DNA from: Candidatus Latescibacterota bacterium
GTDB lineage: Bacteria > Latescibacterota > UBA2968
Length of the DNA stretch: 43,864 bases
Assembly: GCA_038279365.1 (NCBI GenBank)
Contig: JAYODI010000048.1
Location: 1 to 43,864 of the forward strand
Direction: 5' to 3'
Shown here: positions 2,861 to 26,535 of the stretch, in pieces
Numbering within the stretch: the first letter of the stretch is position 1
How the letters are laid out: every line of letters starts with the position of its first letter
Translations under genes and position numbers: made by a program
The notes under the pieces: generated by a model
Database searches by the model: none
Told to the model about the DNA's origin: nothing
What the model saw: only the letters and a program-made list of their open reading frames with translations

Positions 2861-4411
2861 ATGGCATCACAACGTTCTTGGATGGTTTTGCACCCCTCAT
2901 CGGATAATGTGGCAATTGCTTTGCGGGCATTTGAAGTGGGTGAAAAGATGGCCGATGTGGCGGTGGCGGAATCGATTCGGCAATATCATAAAATGGCGTT
3001 GACCGATATCGCTGAAAATGCACCTGTGTATAAGTATGGTCAGATAATTGGGTATACAACCAAACCTATTGCGGCGGGCACGTGGGTGCACACGCATAAT
3101 TTGGGGATGGGGCGTTTGATGGAGACGAATATTACAGATTTGTCAAATGACATTCCCGAACCTGAACCTGCGATTATGGATCGCTACTTTTTGGGTTATC
3201 GCAGTGGTGATGGTCGTGCGGGTACGCGTAATTATGTGTTGATTGGCAGCACCGTGGATTGCTCTGGGCGAGTTGTGGAAATGGTATTGGAGGAGTTGAA
3301 CCGAAAGAAGGCCGATTATACACGGCGCTACCCCAATGTGGATGGGATTGTTGGCCAGACCCATGACAGCGGATGTGGATTGGTGACATTAAGTGAGGGG
3401 CACAAACAACAAAATCGTACGATTCAGAACTTGATGAATCACCCCAATGTGGGGGGGCGTGTGATTGTGCAACTGGGCTGTGAAAAGGGTCAGGCCAAGT
3501 TGATTTTTGGTGACGATCAGGTGATGCCCATTGAAGGGGCAACGGGTGGATCAGATGAGACATTGCCTTTGATTACGATTCAGGAATCGGGTGGCACGTG
3601 GGCGACGGTGGATCGCATTGTGGAATATGTGGAGAAAGTGTTGTTGCCGCGGGCCAATCGGCGACGCAGGGTTTTGATTCCGGCGAGTGAATTGATTTTG
3701 GCGACCCAATGTGGGGGCAGCAATGCCAACAGTGGGTTTACGGCCAATGCGTCGATTGGGTATGCATCGGATTTGTTGATTCGTTGTGGTGGCACAGCTT
3801 TTATTGCGGAGACAACAGAGACGTTTGGTGCAGGACATTTGCTCACACGACGCGCGAAGACCCCTGAGATTGGTCAAAAGTATTTGGATTATGTGGCGGA
3901 TTATCGCAAATATTTGGCTACAGGTGGTGGCACACCCGAAAACAACTTGGCGTATGGGAATATGGAAGGTGGTTTGTCGACCATTGCTGAGAAGGCATTG
4001 GGGTCTATTGCAAAGGGGGGCACTTCGGCATTGTGTTGGGTGAATGATTATGCCGAATTGATTACGGAAAAAGGATTTGGATTTATGAACACACCTGCAT
4101 TTGACCCCGCATCGTGTACGGGACAAACAGCGGGTGGTGCGCAGTTGGGTGTGTTTAGCACGGGAGCTGGCAGTTGTTTTGGTGGTATTTTGGTGCCGTG
4201 GTTAAAGGTGGTGAGCAACAGTGATACGTTTGAACGGATGGAAGATATGGAGATTAATGCGGGTGGTATTGCCGAAGGTGTGGACTCCTTTGAAGATGTG
4301 GGGCGCACGATTTTTGAATATTTGCTGGCAATGGCGAGTGGGGCAAAAACGTATAGTGAAAAGGTGGGGTATTCGGTGGTGAATATTTGGGATAAGGGTG
4401 TGACGACATAA
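2861..4411 (+). CDS. UxaA/GarD-family (altronate/galactarate) dehydratase with N-terminal SAF domain
   Basis: DNVAIAL, HKMALTDI, KYGQIIG, WVHTHN, GTRNYV, HDSGCG, LGCE, QCGGS, GNMEGGLSTIAEKALG, FSTGAGS. Start placed at ATG 2861 from GGAG spacing (alternative 2855). Substrate not assignable. Confidence 0.88.
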   Translation: MASQRSWMVLHPSSDNVAIALRAFEVGEKMADVAVAESIRQYHKMALTDIAENAPVYKYGQIIGYTTKPIAAGTWVHTHNLGMGRLMETNITDLSNDIPEPEPAIMDRYFLGYRSGDGRAGTRNYVLIGSTVDCSGRVVEMVLEELNRKKADYTRRYPNVDGIVGQTHDSGCGLVTLSEGHKQQNRTIQNLMNHPNVGGRVIVQLGCEKGQAKLIFGDDQVMPIEGATGGSDETLPLITIQESGGTWATVDRIVEYVEKVLLPRANRRRRVLIPASELILATQCGGSNANSGFTANASIGYASDLLIRCGGTAFIAETTETFGAGHLLTRRAKTPEIGQKYLDYVADYRKYLATGGGTPENNLAYGNMEGGLSTIAEKALGSIAKGGTSALCWVNDYAELITEKGFGFMNTPAFDPASCTGQTAGGAQLGVFSTGAGSCFGGILVPWLKVVSNSDTFERMEDMEINAGGIAEGVDSFEDVGRTIFEYLLAMASGAKTYSEKVGYSVVNIWDKGVTT

Positions 4412-4453: not shown

Positions 4454-4503
4454 TTGCTGTGTATTTTTGATGTGGGTTTATGACTTGTGAGGAGGGAGGG
4501 TTT

Positions 4504-6264
4504 ATGGAACCGACGATGATTGAGTATGTGGTGGTGGGGTGTTATTTGGTGGCGTTGGTGGGGGTGGGGATGGTGTTTCGCACTTTTAATGAAAATGTGA
4601 GTGATTATTTTCGCAATGGGTTTAAGGGCACGTGGTGGCTGGTGGGATCCAGTGCTTTTATGACGGCATTTAGTGCGTGGACGTTTTCGGGTGCGGCGGG
4701 TGCGGCGTATGAAGCGGGGTGGAGTGTGTTGGTGATTTATTTGGCCAATTCGGTGGGGTTTGCGATTAATGGATTGTTTTTGGCGCGCTGGTTTCGGCAG
4801 ATTCGGGCGTTGACGGGGCCTGAAGTGATTCGGTTGCGGTTTGGGGTGAGCACACAGCAATTTTATGCATGGATGGCGTTTGTGACACAAACATTGTATT
4901 CGTCGTTGCATTTGTTGGGGTTGGCCATTTTTTGTTCGGCGGTATTTGGTTATCAAATTGAACAGGTGATTGTGGTGGTGGGGGTGGTGGTTTTGCTGTA
5001 TTCGTTGATTGGGGGCAGTTGGGCGGTAACGGCAACGGACTTTTTGCAGACTTTGATCTTGATTCCGGTGACCATTTTGGTGGCCGTTTTGTGTTTGGTT
5101 AAATTAGGTGGCATAGGTGCGTTGTTTGATGGTATTGAGGCTATGCACTTATCATCTGATTATGCGGTGTTTAATGCACCAGAACGGTTTCCATTGCGTG
5201 CGTATACATATGCTTGGGCGGTGGCGATGTTGTTGAAAAATGTGATAGGTTACAATACACTGACATCGGCTCAGAAATATTTTTCGGTGAAGGATGGACG
5301 CGAAGCACAAAAGGCGGCGTGGTTGGGATTTGTCTTGATGACCGTGGGGGCATTTATCTGGTTTATTCCACCGATGACAGCAAGGTTATTGTATGATGCG
5401 CAAGTGATGGGTGTGGCCATTCCTAAACCAGCGGAAGCAGCGTATGCAATTGCGAGTTTGAATGTGTTGCCGGTGGGATTAACGGGGTTAATGGTGGTGG
5501 CCATGTTTGCCGCTACGATGAGTTCTATGGATTCGGGCCTCAACAGCAATGCGGCCATTTTTACCAATGATATTTACCCAACATTGTGTGGTTTGTTTGG
5601 AAAAACGCCTGTGGAGGGCAAACAGTTGTTGCATTTGGGGCAAATGTTTTCGGCAGGATTTGGTGTGTGTATTGTTTCTATTGCAACTTATTTTGCCAAT
5701 ACGGATGGGCAAGGTGTGTTTGAACATATGCTGAATGTGGGCGCATTGTTGGCACTTCCAATGGCGGTACCTACGGTGATGGCTTTGTTTATTCGTACAA
5801 CACCACACTGGGCGGCAATAGCAACAGTATGTGTCACTTTTATACCTTCGGCATTGGGATTTTTTAGTGAGACCTTATTTGGTGAGACATGGTCTTTTCA
5901 ACAAAAAGTATTTATCAATATTTTTGTAGGTGCTGTGGCGTATGTGTTGACGATGCCGTTTTGGAAATATGCACCGAATGATTATCGCAATCAGGTAGAT
6001 GATTTTTTTGGTCGTATGTTGACACCTGTTGACTTTGCAAAAGAGGTGGGCGTACCCAATGATTTGCGACAGCTAAAAATTATTGGGCGTTTTGCGGCCA
6101 TTATTGGTGGATTGATTTGTTTTATTGTGTTTATACCCAATCCATTGATTGGACGTTTGGGTATTTTGTTTGTGGGTGGTTTTGTGTTGGGGATCGGATG
6201 CCTGTTTATGTGGTTGGGCAATCGCAGTGTTTCGGATGGTATTGCTGTACAAGCAGTTGATTGA
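4504..6264 (+). CDS. Sodium:solute symporter (SSS) family transporter
   Basis: SDYFRNG, WWLVGSSAFMTAFSAWTFSGAAG, GGSWAVTATDFLQ, FAATMSSMDSGLNS and many TM helices. RBS GGAGGG before ATG 4504. Confidence 0.9.
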   Translation: MEPTMIEYVVVGCYLVALVGVGMVFRTFNENVSDYFRNGFKGTWWLVGSSAFMTAFSAWTFSGAAGAAYEAGWSVLVIYLANSVGFAINGLFLARWFRQIRALTGPEVIRLRFGVSTQQFYAWMAFVTQTLYSSLHLLGLAIFCSAVFGYQIEQVIVVVGVVVLLYSLIGGSWAVTATDFLQTLILIPVTILVAVLCLVKLGGIGALFDGIEAMHLSSDYAVFNAPERFPLRAYTYAWAVAMLLKNVIGYNTLTSAQKYFSVKDGREAQKAAWLGFVLMTVGAFIWFIPPMTARLLYDAQVMGVAIPKPAEAAYAIASLNVLPVGLTGLMVVAMFAATMSSMDSGLNSNAAIFTNDIYPTLCGLFGKTPVEGKQLLHLGQMFSAGFGVCIVSIATYFANTDGQGVFEHMLNVGALLALPMAVPTVMALFIRTTPHWAAIATVCVTFIPSALGFFSETLFGETWSFQQKVFINIFVGAVAYVLTMPFWKYAPNDYRNQVDDFFGRMLTPVDFAKEVGVPNDLRQLKIIGRFAAIIGGLICFIVFIPNPLIGRLGILFVGGFVLGIGCLFMWLGNRSVSDGIAVQAVD

Positions 6265-8738
6265 TTTTTATAAAACCAACGCGTTGGTTTGTGAAGATGA
6301 CGCGTTTTTTTGATTGGGTATGCATGCAAAACTGGGCGAAGTATGGATTGATTGTGGTTTTGGTTTTTTATGCGGGTGTGATTGTTTGGACCTTTGGCGA
6401 TTATGGTGTAACCCCCGATGAAAGACATCATGTGGCTTATGGTGAAAGTGTGGTATTGTGGTATACCACAGGGTTTCAAGAGCGTCGTATTTTTACGTGG
6501 GCAGATATGTGGCTTTATGGTGGCTTTTATGATACTCTTGTGCATTTGATGACACGTGTTTCACCTTTGGATTTGTACGATACACGTCATTTGTGCAATG
6601 CTTTTGTGGGGTTGTTGGGTGTTTGGATTGCTTATCGGTTGGGCAGTTTGTTTGGGTCACGGTGGATAGGATTGTTGGCTGCGGTGTTTTTGATTTTGAC
6701 GCCTCGTTATTATGGCCATGCATTTAACAATAATAAAGACATTCCATTTGCCGTGTTGTATTTGTGGAGTGTGTTTTGGCAAATAAAGGTGTTGTGGGTG
6801 TTGCCACGTGTGCCGTGGCATTGGGTTATCATTACAGGTTTGGTTACGGGGTTGGCCATGGGCATTCGCGTGGGTGGGGTGTTGTTGGTGGGCTATGCGG
6901 GTTTGTTTTGGGGGCTTTGGTACTTTTTGTATTGGAAACGCGAACGTGGTGCATTGGGCGTATTGATTAAAGACTATGTTTTGCGCTTGGGATTGATGTT
7001 TGTGATTGCATATGGTGTGATGTTGGTCTTTTGGCCTTGGGCACAAACGGATCCGTTGCGTCATCCGTTGAAAGCGTTGACTGTGTTTTCGCAGTTTCCG
7101 GGTGGGCATTTGAACTTTTTTGAAGGTGCATATTTTCACAGCTATGAAATTCCATGGTACTATGCTCCCAAATGGTTGTTGTTGACATTGCCAGAGTTTG
7201 TTTGGGTGGGGTTGTTATGTGGTATGGGCTTGATGGTTTATCGCAAATATAATTTTCTAAGTTTGCAAACGGGATTTTTGGGATTTGCGGCATTGTTCCC
7301 ACTTTTTTATTTGATGGTTGCAGGAACCCCTCTTTATAATGCGACTCGGCATTTTATGTTTGTGGTGCCTCCTCTTGTGGTGTTGGCTGGGTATGGTTTT
7401 TGTGGTGTGTTCTATTTATTGGAACATAAGTGGCGCATTGGCTTGTGTGGGGTTGTGGGGGTGATGGTGCTTGTAACGGCAAGCGATATGGTTCGTTTGC
7501 ATCCGTTTCAAACGACATTCTTTAACCGCAGTGTGGGAGGTGGGCTTTGGGGGGGCGTGTCTGTGTATGATACGGATAATTATAACAATGGATACAAACA
7601 GGGTGCGTTGTGGTTGATGGATCATGTGGAAAAAACGGATTCTGATCCTATTCGTGTTGCGGGTGGTGCTGCGCTTGATGTGATGTTGGATGGAGATCGA
7701 TTTGTGATTGAGGATATTGCTTGGCGGGCCGATTATTATTTGACGACGACCAATATGCGGCAACATACAATAATTCCTGGGGAAGTGGTGCATACCGTTG
7801 CACGGATGGGTGTGCCCTTGTTGTATGTGATTCGCCCGGATACCACACGCAAGAATGACGAATTGTTTTCTCAAGATCCTTATCCTTTTCGAGATTTGAT
7901 TTGGGGGAAATGGTATGCGGCAGAAGGACGGTGGGAAGATGCGTTGGCGATGTATCAACGTGCACTGCAAATAAAAGGATCTGAGGCGGATGTGTATGGT
8001 TTGATGGGTGAGGCATATGCCGCACAAGAGAAGTATGAAAAATCGGTAATGTATTACAAAAAGGCTTTGGATATAGGGGCAAACGCTGTGGTTGTGGGCA
8101 CGAAACTGGGCAATGTATTACAAAGTATGGGTGCTTTAGAAGCATCCATACCTTATTATGAACGTGCACTTGAGATACGCCCTAATTATTTGGGCGCGTT
8201 GATGAATTTGGGACGTGCTTATTTTTCTTTGAGGCGGAATGAGGATGCGGTTGTGCCACTTGAAAAAGTGGTTTTTTTTGCACCCGATCAATCTTTGCAT
8301 TTTCAAAGATTGGGCCTTGTTTATTATCAGATGGGGCGCTCTGCTGATGCCATTGAAGCGTTTAAGAGGGCTGTGGAGTTGGATCGACACAGTATGTTGT
8401 CTTGGTATCATTTGGGTTTGGCTTTGGAACAATCGGGGTATGTAGATACGGCTGAAGATATTTATTTGCAAGCATTAGAATACGATGCGCATCGCCCCGA
8501 CATTTTGTTGCGCCTTGCGTCTATTTATCGGGATAATGGAAATTTTGATACGGCTGTACGTGTGCTGATGACTTTATTGGAAAACAACTCAAATAATTGG
8601 GAAGGGTATTATTTGTTGGGGCAAATTTACGAGCAATTGGGTGAAAAGCAGATTGCGATTGTTGCATATGAGAAGGTTTTGGCACTGAACCCCGAACATG
8701 AAAATACGAAAATACAATTGTCAAAATTAAAGCTATGA
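6261..8738 (+). CDS. GT-C (PMT/ArnT-like) glycosyltransferase fused to C-terminal TPR repeats
   Basis: DYGVTPDE loop after TM1, PRYYGHAFNNNKDIPFA, multi-TM N half and a run of TPR-like repeats in the C third. Start uncertain (TTG 6261 overlapping the upstream stop, or ATG 6297). Confidence 0.8.
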   Translation: MIFIKPTRWFVKMTRFFDWVCMQNWAKYGLIVVLVFYAGVIVWTFGDYGVTPDERHHVAYGESVVLWYTTGFQERRIFTWADMWLYGGFYDTLVHLMTRVSPLDLYDTRHLCNAFVGLLGVWIAYRLGSLFGSRWIGLLAAVFLILTPRYYGHAFNNNKDIPFAVLYLWSVFWQIKVLWVLPRVPWHWVIITGLVTGLAMGIRVGGVLLVGYAGLFWGLWYFLYWKRERGALGVLIKDYVLRLGLMFVIAYGVMLVFWPWAQTDPLRHPLKALTVFSQFPGGHLNFFEGAYFHSYEIPWYYAPKWLLLTLPEFVWVGLLCGMGLMVYRKYNFLSLQTGFLGFAALFPLFYLMVAGTPLYNATRHFMFVVPPLVVLAGYGFCGVFYLLEHKWRIGLCGVVGVMVLVTASDMVRLHPFQTTFFNRSVGGGLWGGVSVYDTDNYNNGYKQGALWLMDHVEKTDSDPIRVAGGAALDVMLDGDRFVIEDIAWRADYYLTTTNMRQHTIIPGEVVHTVARMGVPLLYVIRPDTTRKNDELFSQDPYPFRDLIWGKWYAAEGRWEDALAMYQRALQIKGSEADVYGLMGEAYAAQEKYEKSVMYYKKALDIGANAVVVGTKLGNVLQSMGALEASIPYYERALEIRPNYLGALMNLGRAYFSLRRNEDAVVPLEKVVFFAPDQSLHFQRLGLVYYQMGRSADAIEAFKRAVELDRHSMLSWYHLGLALEQSGYVDTAEDIYLQALEYDAHRPDILLRLASIYRDNGNFDTAVRVLMTLLENNSNNWEGYYLLGQIYEQLGEKQIAIVAYEKVLALNPEHENTKIQLSKLKL

Positions 8739-8753
8739 TGTAGGAGTGTTTTT

Positions 8754-9992
8754 ATGATAGATGATCATTTTCAACGCTATACGGCGTATGATCCGATGGT
8801 TCCTGTATGGATTGTGACGCCGGACTTAAATGGGTGTATTCATCGTTTTTTTGATGCGTCTTCTATTAGTCCTTCTGGGCGTTATGTGGGGGTATTTCGT
8901 TTGCCATCTGAACGTCAGTTGCCCAAGCCTGGTGATGTGGGCGATATTGTGGTGATTGATTTGGAAACAGGTGAGCAAAGTGTGGTGGCCAAGTCGCGGG
9001 GGTGGGATACACAGTTGGGCGCACAGGTGCAGTGGGGCGCAACAGATGAGGAATTGTTTTTTAATGATATGGATACGGATGCTTGGCGGCCGTTTGGTGT
9101 GAAGTTTAACCCATTGACGGGTGAACGGTTTGAAATGGACGGCACAGTGTATATGGTGTCGCGAGATGGCAAACAGGCGCTGAGCCCATGTTTGTTGCGT
9201 ACGGGTGCGACTCAGGCAGGATATGGGGTCATTGCACCTGTAGATGCAGTACCGAAGAATGTGGGCGCTGTGGATGATGATGGGATTTATATTACGGATA
9301 CGACAACTGGTGCATCGCGTTTGTTGGTGTCGATACGAGAGATTGTGGAGACGGCAGAACCAAAATTTGATTTGGATGCATATGCAGATGGAGATTTTTA
9401 TGGGTTTCATGTGAAGTGGAATCCGCTGGGTGATCGCATTATGTTTGTTTTGCGCTGGGTGTCGCGCACGCATGGGCTTAAATATGGGCCCAATTTGATT
9501 ACCATGCGAGCAGATGGTTCTGAGATTTGTTGTCCGATTCAGGATGAGGTGTGGTCAAAAGGTGGGCATCATCCGGATTGGTGCCCTGATGGGGAGACGG
9601 TGATGATGAATTTGCGAGTCGGGGATGATAAGGGATTAAGTTTGGTTCGGGCGCATTATGATGGCAGTGGATTTGAGGTGATGACGACAGTGGCGGGGTC
9701 TGGGCACCCAACGTTGCATCCCAATGGACGGCATATTGTGACGGATGTTTATGCACATGAATCACTGGCATATGGGGATGGTACGACACCACTTCGGTTG
9801 ATTGATATAGAGACACATACGGAGCAAGTAATTGCGCGGATTAATAATGACCCACCTTGGTCGGGACCCAAACGGGAGTTGCGGGTTGATCCACATCCGG
9901 CGTGGGATCGGGATTATAAACGGGTGGCGTTTAATATGTGTGTGGATGGATTGCGGCGGGTTTGTGTGGCGGATTTGAGTGGGGTGGTATAG
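8754..9992 (+). CDS. Beta-propeller protein, oligogalacturonate-lyase/TolB-like
   Basis: HRFFD..SPSGRY, WDTQLGAQVQW, HVKWNPLGDRI, HPDWCPDG, HPTLHPNG, RVDPHPAW blade motifs. RBS AGGAG. Confidence 0.65.
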   Translation: MIDDHFQRYTAYDPMVPVWIVTPDLNGCIHRFFDASSISPSGRYVGVFRLPSERQLPKPGDVGDIVVIDLETGEQSVVAKSRGWDTQLGAQVQWGATDEELFFNDMDTDAWRPFGVKFNPLTGERFEMDGTVYMVSRDGKQALSPCLLRTGATQAGYGVIAPVDAVPKNVGAVDDDGIYITDTTTGASRLLVSIREIVETAEPKFDLDAYADGDFYGFHVKWNPLGDRIMFVLRWVSRTHGLKYGPNLITMRADGSEICCPIQDEVWSKGGHHPDWCPDGETVMMNLRVGDDKGLSLVRAHYDGSGFEVMTTVAGSGHPTLHPNGRHIVTDVYAHESLAYGDGTTPLRLIDIETHTEQVIARINNDPPWSGPKRELRVDPHPAWDRDYKRVAFNMCVDGLRRVCVADLSGVV

Positions 9993-10062
9993 GGTGCTGT
10001 TGCATCAATTATTCCGTCTGTACGACGGAATAATTGATATCTTAACTTCTTGCCTTCGGCGA

Positions 10063-10094
10063 CTTACTTTTTTTCAACAGCTAAAAAAAGTAAG
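10063..10094. repeat. Perfect AT-rich palindrome in the intergenic region
   Basis: CTTACTTTTTTT-caacagct-AAAAAAAGTAAG, 12-bp stem with 8-nt loop. Confidence 0.65.
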
Positions 10095-10282
10095 CAAAAA
10101 AAGCCGCCCCTCAGGTGCCGGGGAGGCTGATTTTCCGCAAATACCTTCAGTGGGTACATGGAGGGTAGTGGCCTGTCAGGTGGGGTGTTTTTAGGAAAAA
10201 ATAGCTGGACGGAATGGTGCGGAAAATCCGGATGGATATTGTGATTGGTTTTTTTTAGGTGTTATCGTGATAGGAGGGTGAT

Positions 10283-11326
10283 GTGGATATTTTGGAGCGG
10301 TTGTCGGGGGATTATTTTGGGGGAGTGGTGGGTGTTGAGTGGGGGCGTGATGGGGTGCTTTTGAAGCGGGTGACGGATGGGCAGATGGGGCATTATGAGG
10401 GGTGTAATGATCGGTGGCCTTTGCGGGCGCATTGCAATGCGGGTTGTGTGTTGGAGTTGCGGACGGATTCGAGGGTGTTGGATATTTCGTTTTCGGTTGT
10501 GATGGGGGCGCGGCAGTATTTGGGGTTGGATGTTGAGGTGGATGGGCAGGTTGTAAGGTCTGTTTATGTGGATGATTTTTCAAAGCCTGAACAGGTTGTG
10601 ATTACGAATAATGCGCGGGGGGAGGCGCGCGTGATTTTGGCTGAAGCGGGGCGGTTTACACTTCGGTTGTTTGAATATGCAGAGCAAAAAGAGCGGACTG
10701 TTTGTGTGTATTTACCTCAGAGCGTTGCATTGGCGTTTACGGGGGTGGTGGTTGATGATGGAGCTGTGGTGGAGCCTGTTGAGCGGCCTCAACGGAAGCT
10801 TTTGTGTTTGGGAGATTCGATTACACAGGGGATGGATTCAAAGAGTCCGATGGCAGCTTATACAACACAATTGGCACGGTTGTTGGATGCAGAGTTGTTG
10901 AATCAGGGGGTGGGGGGGCATGTTTTTGATGCAGATTCATTTGATATGGGGCTTGCTTTTGATGCGGATGTGGTGACAATTGCTTATGGTACGAATGATT
11001 GGAATGGGAATAAGACGGTTTCAGAAATTGAAAACAATGTGCGGGCTTATTTGACTAAGGTGAAAGCACGGTTTCCCTCAGTTGATATTTATGTGTTGAG
11101 CCCTATTTGGCGAGTGATTGGGAATGAGGTTCGGCAGGGTGGGAATTTGTGGGATTTTTCGCAGGTGATTTTGAAAACTGCTCAGGCATTTGATCGGGTC
11201 ACCTGTATAGATGGTTTGGTGTTAATGCCACATCAGGAATATTTGTTGCCCGATGGTACACATCCGAATGATGAAGGATTTTTGTATTATGCATTGAATT
11301 TGTATCGGGTGATAAAACGATCATGA
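10283..11326 (+). CDS. SGNH/GDSL-family hydrolase (esterase)
   Basis: Block I LGDSITQG, block II NQGVGG, block III YGTND, block V DGTHPN. GTG start after GGAGG. Confidence 0.9.
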   Translation: MDILERLSGDYFGGVVGVEWGRDGVLLKRVTDGQMGHYEGCNDRWPLRAHCNAGCVLELRTDSRVLDISFSVVMGARQYLGLDVEVDGQVVRSVYVDDFSKPEQVVITNNARGEARVILAEAGRFTLRLFEYAEQKERTVCVYLPQSVALAFTGVVVDDGAVVEPVERPQRKLLCLGDSITQGMDSKSPMAAYTTQLARLLDAELLNQGVGGHVFDADSFDMGLAFDADVVTIAYGTNDWNGNKTVSEIENNVRAYLTKVKARFPSVDIYVLSPIWRVIGNEVRQGGNLWDFSQVILKTAQAFDRVTCIDGLVLMPHQEYLLPDGTHPNDEGFLYYALNLYRVIKRS

Positions 11327-12594
11327 TATACTATGAATTGTTGAAATTTTTGTTGCCTTTGTTGGTGACGGTTGTTGTGCAAGAGATGGGTTTGCAGGTG
11401 CTCAATGGCGGTATGGCGCGGGTGCCAAAAGCGATGGAAACGTTGGCCGCTTATGGTTTGGCTTGGGGCATTACGATGTTTTTACAAGGACCATTGGCAC
11501 AAGGTAAACAGTTGGGTTTGGTGTTGGTGGATTCACGTAATGCATTAAAGCAGGTGCATCGGTTTGTGCTTGGTACGGGGTTTTTGTTGGCGTGCTTGTT
11601 GGCGTGTTTGGCTTTGACGTCTGTGGGGGTTTGGGTGGTTGAAGATGTGCATTTGGTATCTGCCGATTTGAGTGGGGTGGTTCGACGTGCATTTTTTTGG
11701 CTGGTGCCCATTCCTGCAATGGCTGGCGTAAATCGGTTGTATATGGGAATGTTGATGCAGGTGCGCCGAACGGATGTGGTGAGTGTGGCCATGATGGGTG
11801 GCATTGCGGCGAGTATTGGTTCGGTGTTTGTTTTGTTGCCTACCGAATTTGTGCAGGCCGATCCGATTCGGTTGCCTTTGGCGGCCACTTATGCCAGTGC
11901 GTTGACGGAGTTTGTGATTGTGTTTTATGGGCGGTTGCGGTGGGTGCATTTATCCGATGAATCTGAAGGTGAGCCATTGACGTTGGCCGATGTGATTCGG
12001 TTTTTTTGGCCCTTGGCATTTATTATGGCGATTCAGGGATTGAGCCGACCGGTGATTAATTTATTTGTGTCGCGCAGCAGCAATGGGCCAGAAGCGTTGG
12101 CGGTGTTGACGGTTGTTTATGCATTGGCACATGTGCCCTATGGGTGGGTAAATGAGACGCGGAGTTTGCATACGGCGTTTAAACATATTCCAAATCATTT
12201 GCATTATGTGAAACGATTTGTGTGGGGGTGTGGGTTGGTTTCTTTTGGGAGCATGGTGTTGTTATTTTGGACGCCAATTCGTGGGATCTTGTTACAAGAT
12301 TGGATTGGTGTGTCTGAAAATTTGGCAATGCAGTGTGCGACACCGTTGTTTTTGTTTTCGTTTTTTCCTTTGGCCGTGATGATACGTGCGCACTATCATG
12401 GTGTGGGGCTACTGGAACGGCGCACCAAAGCGATGGCACCCAGTGCGCCGGCGCGAATTGGTGCGATTGTGGTGGTTTTGTTGATTTTTTCGGGCACTGA
12501 TATCCATGGCGCAACATTGGGGATTGGTGCTTTGTTGTGTGGGTTTGTGTGTGAAGCGACAACGGTTTGGTGGTGTGTGCAAAAAATGAAATAA
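11323..12594 (+). CDS. ANKH (progressive ankylosis protein)-like membrane transporter, MOP superfamily
   Basis: Multi-TM protein with collinear ANKH-like motifs LAAYGLA, FFWPLA...SRPVINLFVSR, HVPYGW, FWTP, FSFFP..V.IRAH and HGATLGIGALL.GFV.E. ATGA overlap with the SGNH gene. Confidence 0.85.
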   Translation: MIYYELLKFLLPLLVTVVVQEMGLQVLNGGMARVPKAMETLAAYGLAWGITMFLQGPLAQGKQLGLVLVDSRNALKQVHRFVLGTGFLLACLLACLALTSVGVWVVEDVHLVSADLSGVVRRAFFWLVPIPAMAGVNRLYMGMLMQVRRTDVVSVAMMGGIAASIGSVFVLLPTEFVQADPIRLPLAATYASALTEFVIVFYGRLRWVHLSDESEGEPLTLADVIRFFWPLAFIMAIQGLSRPVINLFVSRSSNGPEALAVLTVVYALAHVPYGWVNETRSLHTAFKHIPNHLHYVKRFVWGCGLVSFGSMVLLFWTPIRGILLQDWIGVSENLAMQCATPLFLFSFFPLAVMIRAHYHGVGLLERRTKAMAPSAPARIGAIVVVLLIFSGTDIHGATLGIGALLCGFVCEATTVWWCVQKMK

Positions 12595-12627
12595 AATGTT
12601 TATTGATAGATTGGTATGGAGGGTTTT

Positions 12628-13887
12628 ATGGGTGTGATTAAAACAGATGTGCTCGTTTGCGGCGGTGGGTGTGCAGGTTTGGTGGCGGCACTTGCATCTG
12701 CAAGAATGGGTGCAAAGACATTGTTGATTGAACGTGCAGGATTTGCTGGTGGAATTGTGACGGCAACAGGGTTGCCTTTTTTTGATGGGATTGCACATCA
12801 AGGGAGCAACCGCATTGTTGTGCGGGGAATTGCGATGGAGCTGGCTGTAAAGATGGGGCTTTGTAAGGCAGGCGATACGCATATTGAACCGCACAACCCA
12901 CGTATTCGGAATATTGAACAGTTTAAACTTCTGGCAGATCGCCTGCTTTTGGAACACGATAATTTACAGGTATTGTATCACACGGTGGCTTGTGATGTGG
13001 TGGTGCGTGATGGGCGTATTGCAGGTGTGCGGATTGCAAATAAAGATGGGCTGACCACAGTGGAAGCACGGCAAGTGATTGATACAACGGGTGATGGTGA
13101 TATTGCAGCATGGGCGGGTGCACAGACAGAAAAGAATGATCCGCTAATGCCGATGACGATGCATTTTCGTGTGGGACATGTGGGTGCAGATCGCCAGAAT
13201 ATGGGGGAGTTGGCGCGGGCTTCTTTGATTAAGGCACATGAGGCAGGGGATTTGCCTCTTTTTTATGGACCAGCCATTATGTTTGCCTTTGCAAATGATG
13301 AGGCCTATTTTCATGCGATTCGGGTGACGGGGGATGGTACGATTGCGGCCGATTTGACACGGGCCGAAATGCAGGGGCGCAAAGATGCTTGGACGATTTT
13401 TGAATGTTTGAAGCGCGACGTGCCTGCTTTTAAGGACGCCTATTTTATTGAGAGTGGGCCTTATATCGGTGTGCGAGAAACACGGCGTTTGGTTGGGCAA
13501 CATGTATTGAGTGAAGATGATATTCAGGCGTGTAGGTCGTTTGACGATGCAATTGCGACGGGGTGTTGGTACCTTGATGTACACCCCAATAAGGTGACGC
13601 TTCGGGGGGCAAATGAGGGTAACAAGATTCAACCAGAGCCTTACGATATTCCGTATCGGGCACTGCTTTCAAATGAGCTGGCCAATTTGGTTGTGGCTGG
13701 GCGGTGTCATTCGGCAACGGCGTTTGCGGCGAGTTCGACACGGGTGAATGTGACGGCAATGGGGTTGGGTGAGGCGGCGGGAACGGCAGCGGCCTTGTCT
13801 GTGGCACAGGGTGTGGATTTGGCAGAGTGTGATGGTGTGAAGGTGCGTGAGACATTGTCTGCGAAAGGTGCTGGGCCATTTACTTGA
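12628..13887 (+). CDS. FAD-dependent oxidoreductase (FAD_oxidored family)
   Basis: DVLVCGGGCAG, IDTTGDGDIAAWAG, GVRETRR, YDIPYRAL, NLVVAGRCHS, MGLGEAAG. RBS GGAGG before ATG 12628. Confidence 0.88.
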   Translation: MGVIKTDVLVCGGGCAGLVAALASARMGAKTLLIERAGFAGGIVTATGLPFFDGIAHQGSNRIVVRGIAMELAVKMGLCKAGDTHIEPHNPRIRNIEQFKLLADRLLLEHDNLQVLYHTVACDVVVRDGRIAGVRIANKDGLTTVEARQVIDTTGDGDIAAWAGAQTEKNDPLMPMTMHFRVGHVGADRQNMGELARASLIKAHEAGDLPLFYGPAIMFAFANDEAYFHAIRVTGDGTIAADLTRAEMQGRKDAWTIFECLKRDVPAFKDAYFIESGPYIGVRETRRLVGQHVLSEDDIQACRSFDDAIATGCWYLDVHPNKVTLRGANEGNKIQPEPYDIPYRALLSNELANLVVAGRCHSATAFAASSTRVNVTAMGLGEAAGTAAALSVAQGVDLAECDGVKVRETLSAKGAGPFT

Positions 13888-13958
13888 GATGTGGTTTGGT
13901 GGTGATTATAAATTTGATGTGCATTATATCATTGGTATTTCGTTTTGAGGAGCTTTTT

Positions 13959-14738
13959 ATGGCAGAAAAAAATGTGATGGATCAGTTTCGTTTGGATGGC
14001 AAAGTGGCGTTGGTTGTGGGTGGTTCGAAGGGGTTGGGCAAGTCGATGGCTTTGGGATTTGCACAGGCTGGTGCAACAACAGTGATTGGTGCACGTACAG
14101 AGGCCGATTGTGAAAAAACAGCTTTGGAGATAGCAAATGAGACGGGGCAAGAGAGCATTGCCATTGCGGGGGATGTGACAAAACAGGCCGATGTGGATCG
14201 TATTTTTAATGCGGTAAAGGACAAGTATGGCCACTTGGATGTGGTGGTGAACAGCGCAGGGATTAATGTGCGGCATTTGATTGAAGATTTTCCGTTGGAA
14301 GATTTTAAGAAGGTGATGGATATCAATATGACGGGGGTGTGGTTGTGTTGCCGAGCGGCTGCGCGCATTATGAAATCCCAAGGTTCGGGTTCGGTGATTA
14401 ATGTGGCATCGGCTCTAAGTGGGGTGGGTTTGTCTGAGCGCTCGGCGTATTGTTCGTCTAAGGCGGGGGTGATTGGGTTGACCAAGACATTGGCTATGGA
14501 GTGGGCATCTTCAGGCGTACGTTGTAATGCACTGTGCCCAGGCCCTTTTTTGACAGAGATTAATGTGCCTTTGTTGAAAACGCCTGAAAAGGTGAAGGAT
14601 TTGTTGGCTTTGACGATGTTGAATCGGTGGGCTGAGTTGGAAGAAATAAGAGGTGCGGGTTTGTTTTTGGCCAGTGATGCATCGAGTTTTATGACGGGTG
14701 CGTCGTTGTATGTTGATGGGGGCTGGACGGCACATTGA
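13959..14738 (+). CDS. Short-chain dehydrogenase/reductase (gluconate 5-dehydrogenase/KduD-like)
   Basis: VGGSKGLG, NSAG, YCSSK, LYVDGG. RBS GAGGAG before ATG 13959. Confidence 0.9.
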   Translation: MAEKNVMDQFRLDGKVALVVGGSKGLGKSMALGFAQAGATTVIGARTEADCEKTALEIANETGQESIAIAGDVTKQADVDRIFNAVKDKYGHLDVVVNSAGINVRHLIEDFPLEDFKKVMDINMTGVWLCCRAAARIMKSQGSGSVINVASALSGVGLSERSAYCSSKAGVIGLTKTLAMEWASSGVRCNALCPGPFLTEINVPLLKTPEKVKDLLALTMLNRWAELEEIRGAGLFLASDASSFMTGASLYVDGGWTAH

Positions 14739-14788
14739 TGTTTTATGGTGAAATATTGAATGGTAAATTGGGTGTTTATACATAGGAG

Positions 14789-16186
14789 ATGGATTTGGAC
14801 AATCGACCAAATTTTTTGGTGATTATGACCGATCAACAACGTGGTGATTGTTTAAGTGCCGATGGTCACCCTGTATTATTGACGCCGAATATGGATGCCA
14901 TTGGTGGGGCGGGTGTTCGGTTTTCTCGTGCTTATACCACGTGCCCTGTTTGTGTGCCTGCACGACGATCCTTTTTGTCGGGGCAGTTTCCTTCCACGCA
15001 TGGGGTGTTGAACAACAGCAGTATCGAGTGGGAGGGGCCTTCTTTACCTGGGGTGTTGCGCGATGCGGGATATCAGACCGAGTGGGTGGGGCGTGGGATG
15101 CATCAGACACCTCCGCACAAGCGATATGGTTTTGAACATATGGTGTTTAAAGACCATCGGGTGAAAGATGATTATGATGCTTTTTTGGCTCGACGCGAAC
15201 CTGAAGGCGGTGGTGGGTATTATGGCACGGGTGTGATGCACAACGACTGGACGGCACGACCGTGGCATATGGATGAGGCCTTGCACGCGACAAATTGGAC
15301 GGTGAATGAAGCGTTGAACTTTTTGGATCGGCGCGATCCTTCGTGTCCATTTTTTTTGGTGGCTTCTATTTTGGCACCGCACCCACCGCTTGTGCCGCCT
15401 GCGTTTTATATGGATCGCTATTTGCGCCAAGAATTACCTGATCGGGCGCTGGGTGATTGGGCATTGCCACCCGATCGAACAGATGGTGATACGAGTGCTG
15501 AACGGGTGGATTTAAAGGGAGAAGCGTTGCGTTCGGCACGGGCGGGGTATTATGGGTTGATCAATCACGTGGATGATCAGATTCGTCGGTTGCTCAATCC
15601 TGTGGATGGGGTGCAACAAAAAACAAAGCGCAATACGGTGGTGATTTTCTTTTCAGATCATGGGGAAATGTTGGGTGATCATTATCGGTGGCGAAAGTCT
15701 TTGCCTTATGAAGGTTCGGCACGTATTCCATTTATGATTCAAGCACCTGAGCGATTTGGTTTGCAGGTGGGGATGGTGAGTGATACACCAGTGTGTATTG
15801 AAGATTTGATGCCCACAGTTTTGGCAATGGCCAATGTGCCTTGTCCTGAAGGCGTGGACGGTTCTAATTTGTTGCCATTGATGCAAGGGGAAAGGGGTTT
15901 GGATCGTGAATATTTGCATATTGAAACGGCACCGACGTATCATTGTTTGACCAATGGCAAAGAAAAATTTATTTGGTTTGTAAAAGATGGCAGCGAACAG
16001 TTTTTTGATTTGGAAGTTGATCCAAATGAATGTTGCAATTTAATTGATGCAGAAAAGCGACAAGAGCAGATTGCAAATTGGCGTGTGGCATTGATCCAGG
16101 TGTTGAAGAATCGACCGGAGGGATTTTCTGATGGTCATCGGTTGATTTCTGGGCAAGCCTATCCGGGGTTGATGGCGCGAAAATAA
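14789..16186 (+). CDS. Formylglycine-dependent (Cys-type) sulfatase
   Basis: RPNFLVIMTDQQR, TPNMD, CVPAR signature, PHPP, SDHGEMLGDH. No signal peptide. Confidence 0.92.
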   Translation: MDLDNRPNFLVIMTDQQRGDCLSADGHPVLLTPNMDAIGGAGVRFSRAYTTCPVCVPARRSFLSGQFPSTHGVLNNSSIEWEGPSLPGVLRDAGYQTEWVGRGMHQTPPHKRYGFEHMVFKDHRVKDDYDAFLARREPEGGGGYYGTGVMHNDWTARPWHMDEALHATNWTVNEALNFLDRRDPSCPFFLVASILAPHPPLVPPAFYMDRYLRQELPDRALGDWALPPDRTDGDTSAERVDLKGEALRSARAGYYGLINHVDDQIRRLLNPVDGVQQKTKRNTVVIFFSDHGEMLGDHYRWRKSLPYEGSARIPFMIQAPERFGLQVGMVSDTPVCIEDLMPTVLAMANVPCPEGVDGSNLLPLMQGERGLDREYLHIETAPTYHCLTNGKEKFIWFVKDGSEQFFDLEVDPNECCNLIDAEKRQEQIANWRVALIQVLKNRPEGFSDGHRLISGQAYPGLMARK

Positions 16187-16217
16187 AGTGGGTGTGAGAA
16201 TTTGAAATGAGGTGGTT

Positions 16218-16676
16218 ATGAAAGAGAAAGTGCACTTGTCTGAGGTGGAAGAAGTTGTCGATGATTCACCTAAAAAAAAGTATGGATCGTCATGGAAAGA
16301 TATCTCTGGGGCATTGGATGTAGAGGGCCAGCCTTTTGAAGTAGAATGGGTGCGATTGGCTCCAGGGAAAACGAATTTTCCTTGTCATGCGCACCAAGTG
16401 CAATGGGAATTTTATATGGTTGTGAGTGGTGCGGGTGCTGTGCGTCGCAATGATGATTGGTTTGAGGTGGGTGCTGGCGATTCATTTGTACAACCACCAG
16501 GAACAGCGCATCAGATTCGCAACCCGAGTGAAACTGAAGATTTGATTTATTATGTGATTGCAGACAATCCGGTGAGTGACCCTGTGTATTACCCAGATTC
16601 GGGTAAGTGGTTGATTCGTCCACCTCGTATACTGGGGCGAATGACTGAGGCGAGTTATTATGATGGAGAAGAGTAG
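16218..16676 (+). CDS. Cupin-domain protein
   Basis: PCHAHQVQWEFYMVVSG and PPGTAHQIRN motifs, VYYPDSGK tail. RBS GAGGTGG. Confidence 0.87.
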   Translation: MKEKVHLSEVEEVVDDSPKKKYGSSWKDISGALDVEGQPFEVEWVRLAPGKTNFPCHAHQVQWEFYMVVSGAGAVRRNDDWFEVGAGDSFVQPPGTAHQIRNPSETEDLIYYVIADNPVSDPVYYPDSGKWLIRPPRILGRMTEASYYDGEE

Positions 16677-16889
16677 TTTCGTTTATTGTGATCGTTGCCA
16701 CGCGTTATTTGGCATTTGGGAAAGTAATGGGTGTTGCCTGACCAGGTCATTGGGTAGGGGGGGAAATGTTGGGTGATTTTTACGCCTTGATTATCTGGGT
16801 GTGGCGAGTTCGAAGGGTTTGATGCTTCTTATAACACAGGGATAAATTCCTATGCGATGGCACATAACGACTGTTCAAGGGAGATTGAA

Positions 16890-17630
16890 ATGGATTTAAA
16901 AAATAAAGTTGCCATTGTTACAGGTGGCAATGGTGGTTTGGGGCAGCGTATTTGTTTGGCATTGGCCAACGCAGGTTGTAAGATTGCAGTGGTGTATGCT
17001 AAGAGTAAAGAACAAGCTGAAGAAGTGGCTTCGAGATTGGATACTGAAGCAATGGCCGTGCAGTGCGATTTGGCCAGTGCGAGTGATATTCAAAAGATGG
17101 TCGATGCGGTGTTGGCGCATTTTGGGCAGATTGATATTTTGGTGAATGACGCGGCGTATAATAAGTGGATTCCGTTTGATGATTTGGATGCGTTGACATT
17201 GGAAGAGTGGGATAAGATTTTGGCCATTAATTTGACTGGGCCGATGTTGTGCATCAAGGCTGTGGCACCTGCAATGAAAAAACAGGGTGCTGGGCGGGTG
17301 ATCAATATTTCGTCTATTGCGGGTTTGGGGCCAAGTGGATCATCCATTCCTTACGCAGTGTCTAAGGCGGGGTTGAATCATTTGACCAAGTGTATGGCTG
17401 TGGGGTTGGCCCCTGAGGTGACGGTGAATGGGTTGGCACCTGGGTATATTGAAGGCACGCGCGCAACGTCAAATTTAGCACCCGAATATCGTGAACGGGC
17501 AGCTACGAACAACTTGTTGCAAAAGCCAGCGGATAAAGATGATATTGCCGATCAGGTGGTGGCGCTGTGTAAGGCCGATACGATTACGGGGCAAACATTG
17601 GTTATTGATTCAGGACGGGTTTTTCACTAA
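16890..17630 (+). CDS. Short-chain dehydrogenase/reductase
   Basis: TGGNGGLG, VNDAA, YAVSK, ITGQTLVIDSG. RBS AGGGAG before ATG 16890. Confidence 0.9.
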   Translation: MDLKNKVAIVTGGNGGLGQRICLALANAGCKIAVVYAKSKEQAEEVASRLDTEAMAVQCDLASASDIQKMVDAVLAHFGQIDILVNDAAYNKWIPFDDLDALTLEEWDKILAINLTGPMLCIKAVAPAMKKQGAGRVINISSIAGLGPSGSSIPYAVSKAGLNHLTKCMAVGLAPEVTVNGLAPGYIEGTRATSNLAPEYRERAATNNLLQKPADKDDIADQVVALCKADTITGQTLVIDSGRVFH

Positions 17631-17691
17631 GACGGGTGGGAGATATATTGGTTTTTGGTTGAACGAAAATTATATAATAAATTATTGTTTT

Positions 17692-17705
17692 TGTAAGCGA
17701 TTTCG
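17692..17705. promoter_or_regulatory. Possible LacI-family operator in an AT-rich intergenic region
   Basis: TGTAAGCGATTTCG fits TGWAANCGNTTWCA at 13/14 positions; single site, no regulator gene in the window. Confidence 0.3.
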
Positions 17706-17803
17706 AAATTTTTATTGTAAATAGTCTATTTTTATAGATTATAGTTTGAGTTTTATGGTTTGGATAAATTGTAAAAGTATCATTTACGCACAAGGAGTGT
17801 TTT

Positions 17804-19234
17804 TTGGAACTTCAGATTTGTCGCCCAGAGGCCGAAGGGTTGTCGTCTTCTGCCATTCTTGCTTTTGTTGAAGCTGCCGAAACGGAGTTGGAGGCCTTAC
17901 ACAGCTTGATGATTCTTCGTCATGGGCATATTGTGGCACAAGGGTGGTGGCAACCTTATGGCGCATCTTATAATCACCGATTGTTTTCGCTCAGCAAGAG
18001 TTTTACGTCTACAGCAATAGGATTGGCTGTGTCGGAAGGTCTTTTGCGTGTGGATGATTTGGTGGTTTCATTTTTTGCCGACGCGCTTCCTCAAGAACCC
18101 AGCGAAAATTTGTTGGCGATGCGTATTCGCGATTTGTTGTCGATGACGAGTGGGCATCATAATGATACATTGGGTCGTCTTTTGGCGTGTGAAGATGGCC
18201 AGTGGACCCGCGCGTTTTTGGCTTTGCCTGTGGAACACAAGCCCGGTACGCACTTTGTGTATAACACGGGAGCTACGTATATGTTGGCGGCCATTTTGCA
18301 ACAGGTGACAGGTGAAACCTTGCAAGATTATTTGCAACCGCGTTTGTTTGGGCCATTGGGCATTCAAAATCCCAAATGGCAGATGAGTCCAGAGGGTGTT
18401 CATGTGGGTGGCTGGGGTTTGCGGGTAACAACAGAAGATATTGCGCGGTTTGGTCAGTTGTATTTGCAAAAGGGGCAATGGGAAGGCAAACAATTGGTGC
18501 CTGAAGAATGGGTCGCACAGGCGACATTGCGGCAGACTTCTAATGGCAGCAATCCTGAGAGCGATTGGGAGCAAGGATATGGCTATCAGTTTTGGAGATG
18601 CCGACACAATGCGTATCGGGGCGATGGGGCTTTTGGTCAGTTTTGTTTGGTGATGCCCGATCAAGATATGGTTGTGGCAATTACTTCGGGTCTAAAAAAT
18701 ATGCAAAGTGTTTTGGATTTGATTTGGAAATATGTGTTGCCTGCTGTGCAGAGTGAACCTTTGCCACCCAATGATCAGGATTATGATTTGTTGCAAGAAA
18801 AAATGGGATCGTTGTCTTTACCTGTGGTTCAAGGTCAGGCTATGTCATCGCTTGCGACGGATGTTTCGGGGCAGGTTTATGTACGTGAGAAGGATGACAG
18901 CGAAATTCAATCTGTTGCGTTTCGATTTGAAGAAGAAGCGTGTGAGATCACGTTGAAAGATGCTGAAGGCGAGCATTCGTTTGGATGTGGGTATCAAACT
19001 TGGGTAAGGGGTGAGACGACTTTTGATAGTGAAGATGGTTTGCCACAAGTGATTGCTGCTGCAGGTGCGTGGACAGCGCAAGATACCTATACGGTTAAGA
19101 TGTGTTTTTATGAAACACCGTTTTGCTCGACGATTACGATTCGATTTGATGGCGATCTGGTGTTGTTGCACTATGAGGTGAATGTGGGATTTGGTGGGGT
19201 GAAACAGATTGATTGGGTGGGAAAACGCACATAA
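17804..19234 (+). CDS. Serine hydrolase, beta-lactamase class C/esterase family
   Basis: FSLSKS (SxxK), LLSMTSG, FVYNT, LFGPLGI, YGYQFW, GDGAFGQ. TTG start after AAGGAG, no signal peptide. Confidence 0.88.
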   Translation: MELQICRPEAEGLSSSAILAFVEAAETELEALHSLMILRHGHIVAQGWWQPYGASYNHRLFSLSKSFTSTAIGLAVSEGLLRVDDLVVSFFADALPQEPSENLLAMRIRDLLSMTSGHHNDTLGRLLACEDGQWTRAFLALPVEHKPGTHFVYNTGATYMLAAILQQVTGETLQDYLQPRLFGPLGIQNPKWQMSPEGVHVGGWGLRVTTEDIARFGQLYLQKGQWEGKQLVPEEWVAQATLRQTSNGSNPESDWEQGYGYQFWRCRHNAYRGDGAFGQFCLVMPDQDMVVAITSGLKNMQSVLDLIWKYVLPAVQSEPLPPNDQDYDLLQEKMGSLSLPVVQGQAMSSLATDVSGQVYVREKDDSEIQSVAFRFEEEACEITLKDAEGEHSFGCGYQTWVRGETTFDSEDGLPQVIAAAGAWTAQDTYTVKMCFYETPFCSTITIRFDGDLVLLHYEVNVGFGGVKQIDWVGKRT

Positions 19235-25821: not shown

Positions 25822-25826
25822 GGGGA

Positions 25827-26507: not shown

Positions 26508-26535
26508 GGAATGCGGTTCTAAAAAATGGTGGATG

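Follow-up and report, generated by a model that had tools for sequence, protein, structure and literature searches.

The window analysed here, a contig of 43,864 nucleotides from a Candidatus Latescibacterota bacterium (JAYODI010000048.1, assembly GCA_038279365.1), encodes a membrane protein of 423 amino acids which is almost certainly a bona fide bacterial member of the ANKH family (SLC62; TCDB 2.A.66.9; PF07260). Altogether, it is considered probable that the protein is an ANKH-family transporter of the MOP superfamily, for which the efflux of small anions would be the likeliest role. ANKH (SLC62A1), with mutations known from craniometaphyseal dysplasia and calcium pyrophosphate deposition (CPPD) disease, controls tissue mineralisation as well as extracellular pyrophosphate and citrate. 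The bacterial protein adds a new, uncharacterised member to a known family, and databases already assign such proteins to PF07260; the finding is notable for the closeness to the animal protein and for a possible use as a model system.

Family membership and predicted fold

A Pfam-A search of the 423-residue protein returned ANKH (PF07260) as the sole significant family, with an E-value of 4.9e-50 and a score of 171.2 bits (cut-off 22), where residues 3-288 were aligned to positions 10-305 of the 344 positions of the profile; one other match was below the threshold. No Pfam match to MatE (PF01554), MurJ, Polysacc_synt or Rft1 was obtained at E <= 1, and the search of NCBIfam gave no family at E <= 1. 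An identity as a generic MATE or MurJ protein, which the original prediction had set against its own proposal, is therefore not indicated. On the Pfam model, the score of the window protein (171 bits) was almost identical to that of choanoflagellate ANKH (169 bits), whereas a distant group of bacterial ANKH-like proteins reached 35-67 bits. In a scan of whole genomes with the ANKH model, the window protein scored 172.9 bits and none of the 14 control genomes gave a match.

As the vertebrate comparison sequence, ANKH-B from sturgeon (P0272, 496 amino acids) was used, standing in for human ANKH. BLASTP aligned the two proteins co-linearly with 148 identities in 435 positions (34%, E 3e-81), residues 3-415 of the bacterial protein corresponding to residues 10-444 of the fish protein, and the alignment extended over the C-terminal third, beyond the part covered by the Pfam model. 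This bears out the earlier claim of an open reading frame (ORF) resembling ANKH along its full length, and all seven ANKH motif pairs that had been listed in support of this claim were visible in the alignment, with one or two differences between fish and human. With HMMER, an identity of 37% was determined both to the fish ANKH-B cluster (496 amino acids, query residues 3-415, E 4.7e-67) and to ANKH of the sponge Sycon. A scan of 1.84 billion representative proteins gave 954 homologues at E <= 0.001 and 72 at E <= 1e-30. The look-up of clusters named animal ANKH from fish (ANKH-B), the sponge Sycon, a crinoid, an acorn worm, amphioxus, Lingula and a bryozoan, and choanoflagellate homologues were found for Hartaetosiga, Monosiga and Salpingoeca.

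The two proteins differ at their ends. Sturgeon ANKH-B continues for about 50 further residues, which comprise a run of lysines followed by an acidic stretch rich in D and E, while the bacterial protein is without this tail, ends 8 residues past the aligned core and begins about 7 residues later than the fish protein. The earlier statement that only the acidic C-terminal tail is lacking was thus correct for the tail and incomplete for the N-terminus. The acidic tail is a feature of animal ANKH and not of the Pfam family, and the bacterial protein does not show it. Owing to the missing tail and N-terminus, the regulation and perhaps also the behaviour of the protein may differ from those of ANKH.

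When 26 bacterial, 20 eukaryotic and 34 distant sequences were aligned, the bacterial and the eukaryotic sequences shared a residue in 38 columns, present in no fewer than 85% of the former and 80% of the latter. These columns include R242, R355, R378, Q25, Q238, N246, Y273, W275 and E411, among which Q238, N246, Y273 and W275 were not kept in the 34 distant sequences. At the level of the alignment, the bacterial protein was shown to keep polar and charged residues common to bacterial and eukaryotic ANKH, namely three arginines, two glutamines, one asparagine and one glutamate.

Passages of PMC13356900 name the human ANKH variants P5L/T, M48T, L244S, C331R, S375del, F377del and G389R. Sturgeon ANKH-B carries the human residues at all seven position numbers, and via its alignment human L244, C331, S375, F377 and G389 correspond to the identical residues L231, C303, S346, F348 and G360. 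P5 precedes the bacterial start and has no counterpart residue. Human M48 aligns with T40 (codon 11440-11442), and this threonine is nearly invariant in 15 close bacterial sequences. Threonine is also the residue of the human CPPD-associated variant M48T, and the match to T40 may be a coincidence.

The AlphaFold2 (AF2) model of the protein, built from an alignment of 36 sequences, was all-helical with a mean predicted local distance difference test (pLDDT) value of 92.6 and a predicted template modelling (pTM) score of 0.87. In a Foldseek search against the PDB, 55 chains matched at E <= 0.001, and among the matches listed all were MATE, MurJ or Wzx, including plant and human MATEs. Inward-facing PfMATE (6fhz) matched with an E-value of 6e-8 and a template modelling (TM) score of 0.71, MurJ (6nc6/6nc8) with TM scores of 0.74-0.76 and WzxE with 0.63-0.66; the sequence identity in the structural alignments with MOP structures was 12-18%. 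An hhalign comparison of the N-terminal half (2-207) with the C-terminal half (220-422) gave a probability of 99.4% and an E-value of 6e-22. The two halves are an internal repeat, which is the two-lobe arrangement of the superfamily. For the predicted model, the fold was shown to be the MOP fold, as in MATE, MurJ and Wzx, and the earlier placement in the MOP/MATE superfamily is upheld. Passages of PMC9333335 class ANKH in TCDB 2.A.66.9 with the fold label 'MATE'. A search of the PDB by sequence gave only two chance matches (E 0.74 and 1.3), and no structure of ANKH was found there by sequence or by fold.

The ORF (11323-12594, plus strand) starts with an ATG, and the TGA stop of the GDSL/SGNH gene lying upstream overlaps it in the sequence ATGA (11323-11326). 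Near-identical DNA is present in estuary, marine and marsh metagenomes from 12 studies. A contig of 3261 bases, from a study other than the likely source, covers positions 10419-13679 and thereby the esterase, ANKH and FAD-oxidoreductase genes with 15 differences. All five natural variants within the ANKH ORF, obtained from metagenome contigs of three other samples, were synonymous changes at third positions; it can therefore be concluded that the ORF is a real gene under purifying selection. In a scan of 8500-17900, promoter-like sites were no more numerous than in shuffled sequences, and no terminator-like site was found in the gap between the ANKH and the FAD-oxidoreductase gene.

Relation to eukaryotic ANKH and distribution

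Two trees were calculated. The quick tree comprised 75 rows, i.e. the window protein, 66 full-length representatives and 8 added rows, and left out the fragments and multi-stretch matches among the 150 listed representatives. The careful maximum-likelihood tree comprised 42 rows (15 bacterial ANKH, 17 eukaryote-labelled and 10 distant bacterial-type rows), from which the long-branched bryozoan trio and P0160 had been dropped and in which three representatives had been swapped for named cluster members. Fourteen of the 17 'eukaryote' rows were named eukaryotic by their source (animals, three choanoflagellates, a chlorarachniophyte, an MMETSP transcript and a EukProt entry), and the remaining three were placed by tree position and length only. 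Among those outgroup rows that were looked up, only two carried organism names, a Phycisphaerae and a Tectomicrobia metagenome-assembled genome (MAG).

In the careful tree, the 15 bacterial and 17 eukaryote-labelled rows united with a support of 99/96 versus the 10 distant rows, and the quick tree showed the same split with a support of 99. The core eukaryotic clade of 15 rows was supported at 100/98, and the window protein grouped with P0005 at 100/100. Judged from these trees, eukaryotic ANKH has its nearest prokaryotic relative in the bacterial clade. The bacterial rows stood on one side of a branch with a support of only 76/69. Forcing the 17 eukaryote rows together cost 1.2 log-likelihood units, with a p-value of 0.43 in the approximately unbiased test (p-AU), and the monophyly was not rejected. 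The trees are compatible with more than one branching order within the joint group and with an ancient transfer in either direction. They give the lineage of the window no special closeness to eukaryotes compared with the other bacterial members. The earlier suggestion that this lineage is close to the prokaryotic source of animal ANKH can thus be kept in part, for the bacterial clade as the nearest prokaryotic relative, whereas a special closeness of the window's own lineage was not found.

Since choanoflagellates, a chlorarachniophyte and a marine-protist transcript from MMETSP fall into the eukaryotic clade, this clade is not animal-only. Homologues beyond animals and choanoflagellates were observed as P0173, P0294, P0184 and P0166; the chlorarachniophyte sequence (Norrisiella) and a 531-residue cluster group beside the animals, and the MMETSP transcript groups with the choanoflagellates. 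The non-animal homologues hint at a wider or horizontally spread eukaryotic distribution.

On the bacterial side, a search of 5.8 billion proteins gave 467 matches, of which the best 120 were 50-100% identical, comprised 319-498 amino acids and carried a precomputed PF07260 tag; a few of these were named 'progressive ankylosis protein' by the Joint Genome Institute (JGI). In a scan of one genome per prokaryotic species, with an alignment of bacterial members as the query, relatives were encoded in 131 stretches of species genomes, and the locus comparisons described below cover 80 of these 131 stretches. All of the 80 loci are MAGs or 'uncultured' records, and their titles name Latescibacterota, Gemmatimonadota, Chloroflexota (Anaerolineae, Caldilineaceae, Litorilinea), Handelsmanbacteria and unclassified bacteria. 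The closest among the loci listed, L004, is 81% identical and originates from a Latescibacterota MAG of the same genus as the window's genome, while the internal divergence of the bacterial clade goes down to about 40% identity.

Within the window's phylum, 67 of 168 genomes matched at E <= 1e-5, some of the matches being only distant paralogues. The matches were confined to two of the 14 families (8 of 30 and 58 of 76 genomes) and were missing from all 61 genomes of the other twelve. In one genus of the window's own family none of the 21 genomes matched, though most of the listed genomes are 95-99% complete. Within the phylum, the ANKH homologue is a patchy accessory gene and not a core gene.

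A second, distant ANKH-like gene was observed on another contig of the same assembly (C21; L002:1141-2451, plus strand). Its product of 436 amino acids scored 43 bits on the Pfam ANKH model, each half of it aligns to the N-terminal part of the profile, and it falls into the distant group and not into the close clade. The assembly is rated 7.4% contaminated, and the origin of this gene from the same organism is uncertain.

Gene neighbourhood and proposed transport function

The same-strand neighbours of the ANKH homologue in the window are catabolic enzymes (Table 1). The gene order was found as claimed before, with the ATGA-coupled SGNH esterase upstream and the FAD oxidoreductase, the short-chain dehydrogenase/reductase (SDR) and the sulfatase downstream.

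Table 1. Position and assignment of the ANKH-family gene and the neighbouring genes in the window
Feature	Position	Strand	Basis
Altronate/galactarate-type dehydratase	2855-4411	+	Pfam GD_AH_C/SAF; galactarate dehydratase model 372 bits, cut-off 731
Sodium:solute symporter	4480-6264	+	Pfam SSF
Tetratricopeptide repeat (TPR) protein	6261-8738	+	Pfam TPR
412-residue predicted beta-propeller, most like oligogalacturonate lyase of polysaccharide lyase family 22 (PL22)	8754..9992	+	AF2, Foldseek
SGNH/GDSL esterase with an extra N-terminal domain of about 170 residues	10283..11326	+	Pfam Lipase_GDSL_2, residues 175-332
ANKH-family (SLC62-like, MOP superfamily) membrane transporter with internal two-fold repeat	11323..12594	+	Pfam, BLASTP, AF2, hhalign
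FAD-dependent oxidoreductase (PF12831), between ANKH gene and SDR	12616-13887	+	Pfam FAD_oxidored E 1.6e-95
SDR near gluconate 5-dehydrogenase / KduD	13884-14738	+	Pfam adh_short_C2
Sulfatase, probably cytoplasmic	14789-16186	+	Pfam Sulfatase
Small cupin	16212-16676	+	Pfam Cupin_2
Second SDR	16857-17630	+	Pfam adh_short

For several of these genes, the NCBIfam matches stayed below the cut-offs: the SGNH esterase showed weak matches to acetylxylan esterase and glucomannan deacetylase, far below the cut-off, the downstream SDR matched gluconate 5-dehydrogenase with 222 bits and KduD with 198-200 bits, all below cut-off, and the sulfatase matched arylsulfatase with 462 bits compared to a cut-off of 481. 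The sulfatase domain begins at residue 7 without a hydrophobic leader and comprises a CxPxR-type motif. In the three neighbour sequences read, i.e. the lyase-like protein, the SGNH esterase and the sulfatase, no signal peptide was visible.

No Pfam or NCBIfam match was found for the lyase-like protein of 412 residues. It belongs to a very large family, in which 1672 homologues were found with E <= 1e-10 as the limit; their identity is about 57-65% in Latescibacterota, Gemmatimonadota, Armatimonadota, Planctomycetota and a cyanobacterium. Its AF2 model (pLDDT 92.8) matched the PL22 structures 3c5m and 3pe7 best in Foldseek (E about 7e-17, TM score 0.65-0.72), whereas the match to TolB was about six orders of magnitude poorer (E about 1e-10). 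Based on the predicted structure, these proteins may form an unrecognised lyase family. Altogether, the cluster in the window looks like a set of genes by which acidic, acetylated or sulfated sugar oligomers are processed in the cytoplasm after import.

The contig also bears a gene fragment for cytochrome bd subunit II (3-764) and, on the minus strand at 25108-27379, a heme-exporter set (CcmA-like ABC ATPase, CcmB, CcmC-like). Both belong to the ordinary respiratory equipment of bacteria and support a native bacterial contig.

A different picture of the neighbourhood was obtained by comparing 12 neighbours in the window with the 80 related loci by tblastn, where two of the loci are contigs of one MAG with identical layout. 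Upstream of the ANKH homologue, 5 of the 80 loci had the lyase-like gene and 4 the esterase, the SDR followed downstream on the same strand in 7 as the most often retained downstream partner, a sulfatase lay within 8 kb in 14, and a homologue of the FAD oxidoreductase was near the ANKH gene in none, L004 included. The 'catabolic operon' is therefore not supported as a guide to the substrate, as which it had been offered. The dehydratase and the symporter were retained in L004 only. In this locus, the FAD oxidoreductase and the TPR gene (6261-8738) are missing and the SDR directly follows the ANKH gene; the two genes are lineage-specific insertions into an otherwise syntenic cluster.

In a crude survey of ORF clusters, the ANKH ORF was kept in 70 of 81 sources, and in the other 11 it was dropped since a longer overlapping ORF displaced it. 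Two other recurring layouts were observed. The first comprises an amidohydrolase, the ANKH homologue, a thiamine pyrophosphate (TPP) enzyme (NCBIfam PRK06154) and a GFO/IDH/MocA oxidoreductase. The TPP enzyme, which matched PRK06154 with 736 bits compared to a cut-off of 607, adjoins the ANKH homologue in 25 of the 70 surveyed loci, is its most frequent neighbour and is a possible functional partner. It was seen beside the ANKH homologue in two phyla, in L013-L066 for Latescibacterota and in L062, L079, L080 and L083 for Chloroflexota. The second layout, found in about 10-13 loci, comprises a PALP enzyme, the ANKH homologue and a divergent class-V aminotransferase, followed by SMP-30 and a symporter; the PALP enzyme is of the 1-aminocyclopropane-1-carboxylate (ACC) deaminase / D-cysteine desulfhydrase / CuyA kind, with matches below the cut-offs. 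The theme common to the layouts consists only of catabolic enzymes for small polar compounds plus uptake carriers; in other genomes, too, the homologue stands among such genes.

An export of sulfur oxyanions was considered as a theme on account of the sulfatases, the CuyA-like PALP enzyme and the TPP enzyme, which distantly resembles sulfoacetaldehyde acetyltransferase. This theme was dropped: neither the CuyA-like nor the sulfatase matches reach the NCBIfam cut-offs, and the only model passed by the TPP enzyme, PRK06154, is uncharacterised.

With regard to the function, the characterised MOP members known to us are all exporters or flippases, and to our knowledge the mechanism by which ANKH moves ATP and citrate is not understood. 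Passages of PMC7371198, PMC13664135 and PMC13356900 describe an ANKH-dependent release of ATP and other nucleoside triphosphates, citrate, succinate and malate. By analogy, the evidence leans towards a transporter of a small anionic solute. For the direction of transport, outward would be given slightly less than an even chance, and appears somewhat more likely than inward because ANKH releases ATP, citrate, succinate and malate, the known MOP transporters mentioned above export or flip, and an inside-negative potential favours the exit of anions.

In the proposed mechanism, the membrane protein would comprise about 12-14 helices, with two homologous halves arranged round a central cavity, and either the inside-negative membrane potential or ion coupling would power the exit of a small anionic metabolite from the cytoplasm. 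In the window genome, the cargo could be an anionic product or intermediate formed when acidic, acetylated or sulfated sugar oligomers are degraded in the cytoplasm. A breakdown pathway for acidic sugars is suggested because a PL22-like lyase, an SGNH esterase, a KduD-like SDR, a sulfatase and a uronate-type dehydratase lie nearby. Tentatively, and with less confidence than the parts above, the whole clade could be regarded as stemming from the ancestor of eukaryotic ANKH, or from its donor lineage, and as working like ANKH, in that the membrane potential would drive small polyanions such as citrate and other carboxylates, nucleotides or sulfur oxyanions out of the cytoplasm.

Several points weigh against an ANKH-like efflux transporter. 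The gene context is not conserved across the clade, with at least three unrelated recurring layouts, and the window's own layout recurs in only 4-7 of the 80 loci; since the context varies between genomes, the substrate cannot be read from the neighbours. Small-anion export, as proposed before, hence gains no support from the context across the 80 loci and is kept as an inference. A cytoplasmic lyase, esterase and sulfatase need imported substrates, and uptake therefore fits as well as export. The likeness of the fold to the flippases of lipid-linked glycans, MurJ and WzxE, is as strong in Foldseek as that to MATE. The acidic C-terminal tail and the first 7 or so residues, with the disease position P5, are missing. 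The searched literature contained no transport or expression experiments on any bacterial member, and in the open full-text literature (without subscription journals, supplements and the TCDB and InterPro pages) no paper discussing bacterial ANKH homologues or a structure of ANKH was found. One RNA run contributed a sole contig of 175 bases at 13650-13824, within the FAD oxidoreductase, and none on the ANKH gene, which is uninformative either way.

The main alternative, rather unlikely and yet the best of the rivals, would be an uptake carrier which brings anionic oligosaccharides or sugar acids, e.g. unsaturated, acetylated or sulfated oligo-uronides, into the cytoplasm for the neighbouring enzymes. 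As no signal peptide is visible in the PL22-like protein, the esterase or the sulfatase, the compounds on which these three act have to be taken up into the cell, and the translational coupling of the ANKH gene to the esterase (ATGA) as well as the location of homologues among catabolic enzymes elsewhere would fit such a carrier. However, a sodium:solute symporter in the cluster could already serve for import, and the varying context does not tie the homologue to uronide catabolism. The characterised MOP members known to us are exporters or flippases, which also argues against uptake, as does the release mediated by ANKH according to passages of PMC7371198 and PMC13664135.

A flippase for lipid-linked glycans or a polysaccharide exporter of the Wzx, MurJ or Rft1 kind, resembling ANKH by shared MOP ancestry only, is distinctly improbable. 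The TM scores to MurJ and WzxE, which are equal to or above those to MATE, and a weak Polysacc_synt match below the cut-off in one member of the distant group are in line with it, but Pfam gave no match to MurJ, Polysacc_synt or Rft1 at E <= 1, the identity to MOP structures is 12-18% compared to 34-37% for ANKH, and no genes for glycosyltransferases or cell-envelope synthesis were found among the annotated neighbours. A recent acquisition from a eukaryote, or a eukaryotic contamination of the assembly, is very unlikely and as such refuted: the identity of 37% to fish and sponge ANKH, above that of most bacterial-eukaryotic homologue pairs, and the patchiness within the phylum (2 of 14 families, none of 21 genomes in one genus of the own family) could be explained in this way, but the gene is ATGA-coupled in a same-strand bacterial cluster on a contig with cytochrome bd and Ccm genes, contigs of other studies show the same layout, members of the bacterial clade come from 131 species genomes in at least three phyla and diverge down to about 40% identity, and the next outgroup includes named bacterial MAGs (Phycisphaerae and Tectomicrobia).

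Significance and comparison with known systems

The findings show that the ANKH family is not an animal invention, and they mark an uncharacterised transporter family which recurs beside catabolic enzymes; its carriers are Latescibacterota, Gemmatimonadota and Chloroflexota in samples of estuarine, marine and marsh origin. With 34-37% identity across the core, the disease-relevant residues kept and the disordered tail missing, the use of the bacterial protein as a surrogate for structural and proteoliposome work on ANKH is realistic. The value is limited by the PF07260 assignment already present in databases, by a substrate that is only predicted to be a small anion, and by the fact that all carriers found are uncultured. 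If the clade is indeed an efflux path for polyanions, the ancestral role of ANKH would be that of a metabolic overflow valve attached to catabolic pathways, and the tail-less, operon-encoded proteins would be the first tractable system for the structure, the transport mechanism and the disease mutations of ANKH (e.g. L244S, corresponding to L231 here).

Compared to vertebrate ANKH (SLC62A1), the bacterial protein belongs to the same Pfam family and is co-linear over residues 3-415, with an identity between 34% (BLASTP) and 37% (HMMER); the common motifs include WPLA..Q..SRP..NLFVSR, PYGW, FSFFP...RAH and HGATLG..LL.GF..E. In contrast, vertebrate ANKH comprises about 492-496 amino acids instead of 423, and the lysine-rich and acidic cytosolic C-terminal tail and the N-terminus bearing P5 are both missing from the bacterial protein. 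Fish ANKH has an insert of about 10 residues in a loop after fish residue 310, which the bacterial protein is without. The bacterial gene is embedded in an operon.

The distant bacterial ANKH-like proteins are similar in their length of about 410-470 amino acids and their two-repeat architecture, and they score above the PF07260 cut-off. They differ by 35-67 bits on the Pfam ANKH model versus 171 bits, by an identity of 23-31% and by their position in a separate outgroup clade (99/96). The group, to which proteins of the Phycisphaerae MAG, the Tectomicrobia MAG and contig C21 of the own assembly belong, does not keep columns such as Q238, N246, Y273 and W275.

The transporters MATE (PfMATE 6fhz, NorM), MurJ (6nc6, 5t77) and WzxE (9g9n) comprise two homologous lobes, as does the AF2 model, which matches them at TM scores of 0.6-0.76 and best in their inward-facing states. 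Their sequences are different, with an identity of 12-18% and no match of the bacterial protein to the Pfam families MatE, MurJ or Polysacc_synt at E <= 1. MurJ has 14 helices, and judged by length alone, the 423 amino acids of the bacterial protein fit a MATE transporter with 12 helices rather than MurJ.

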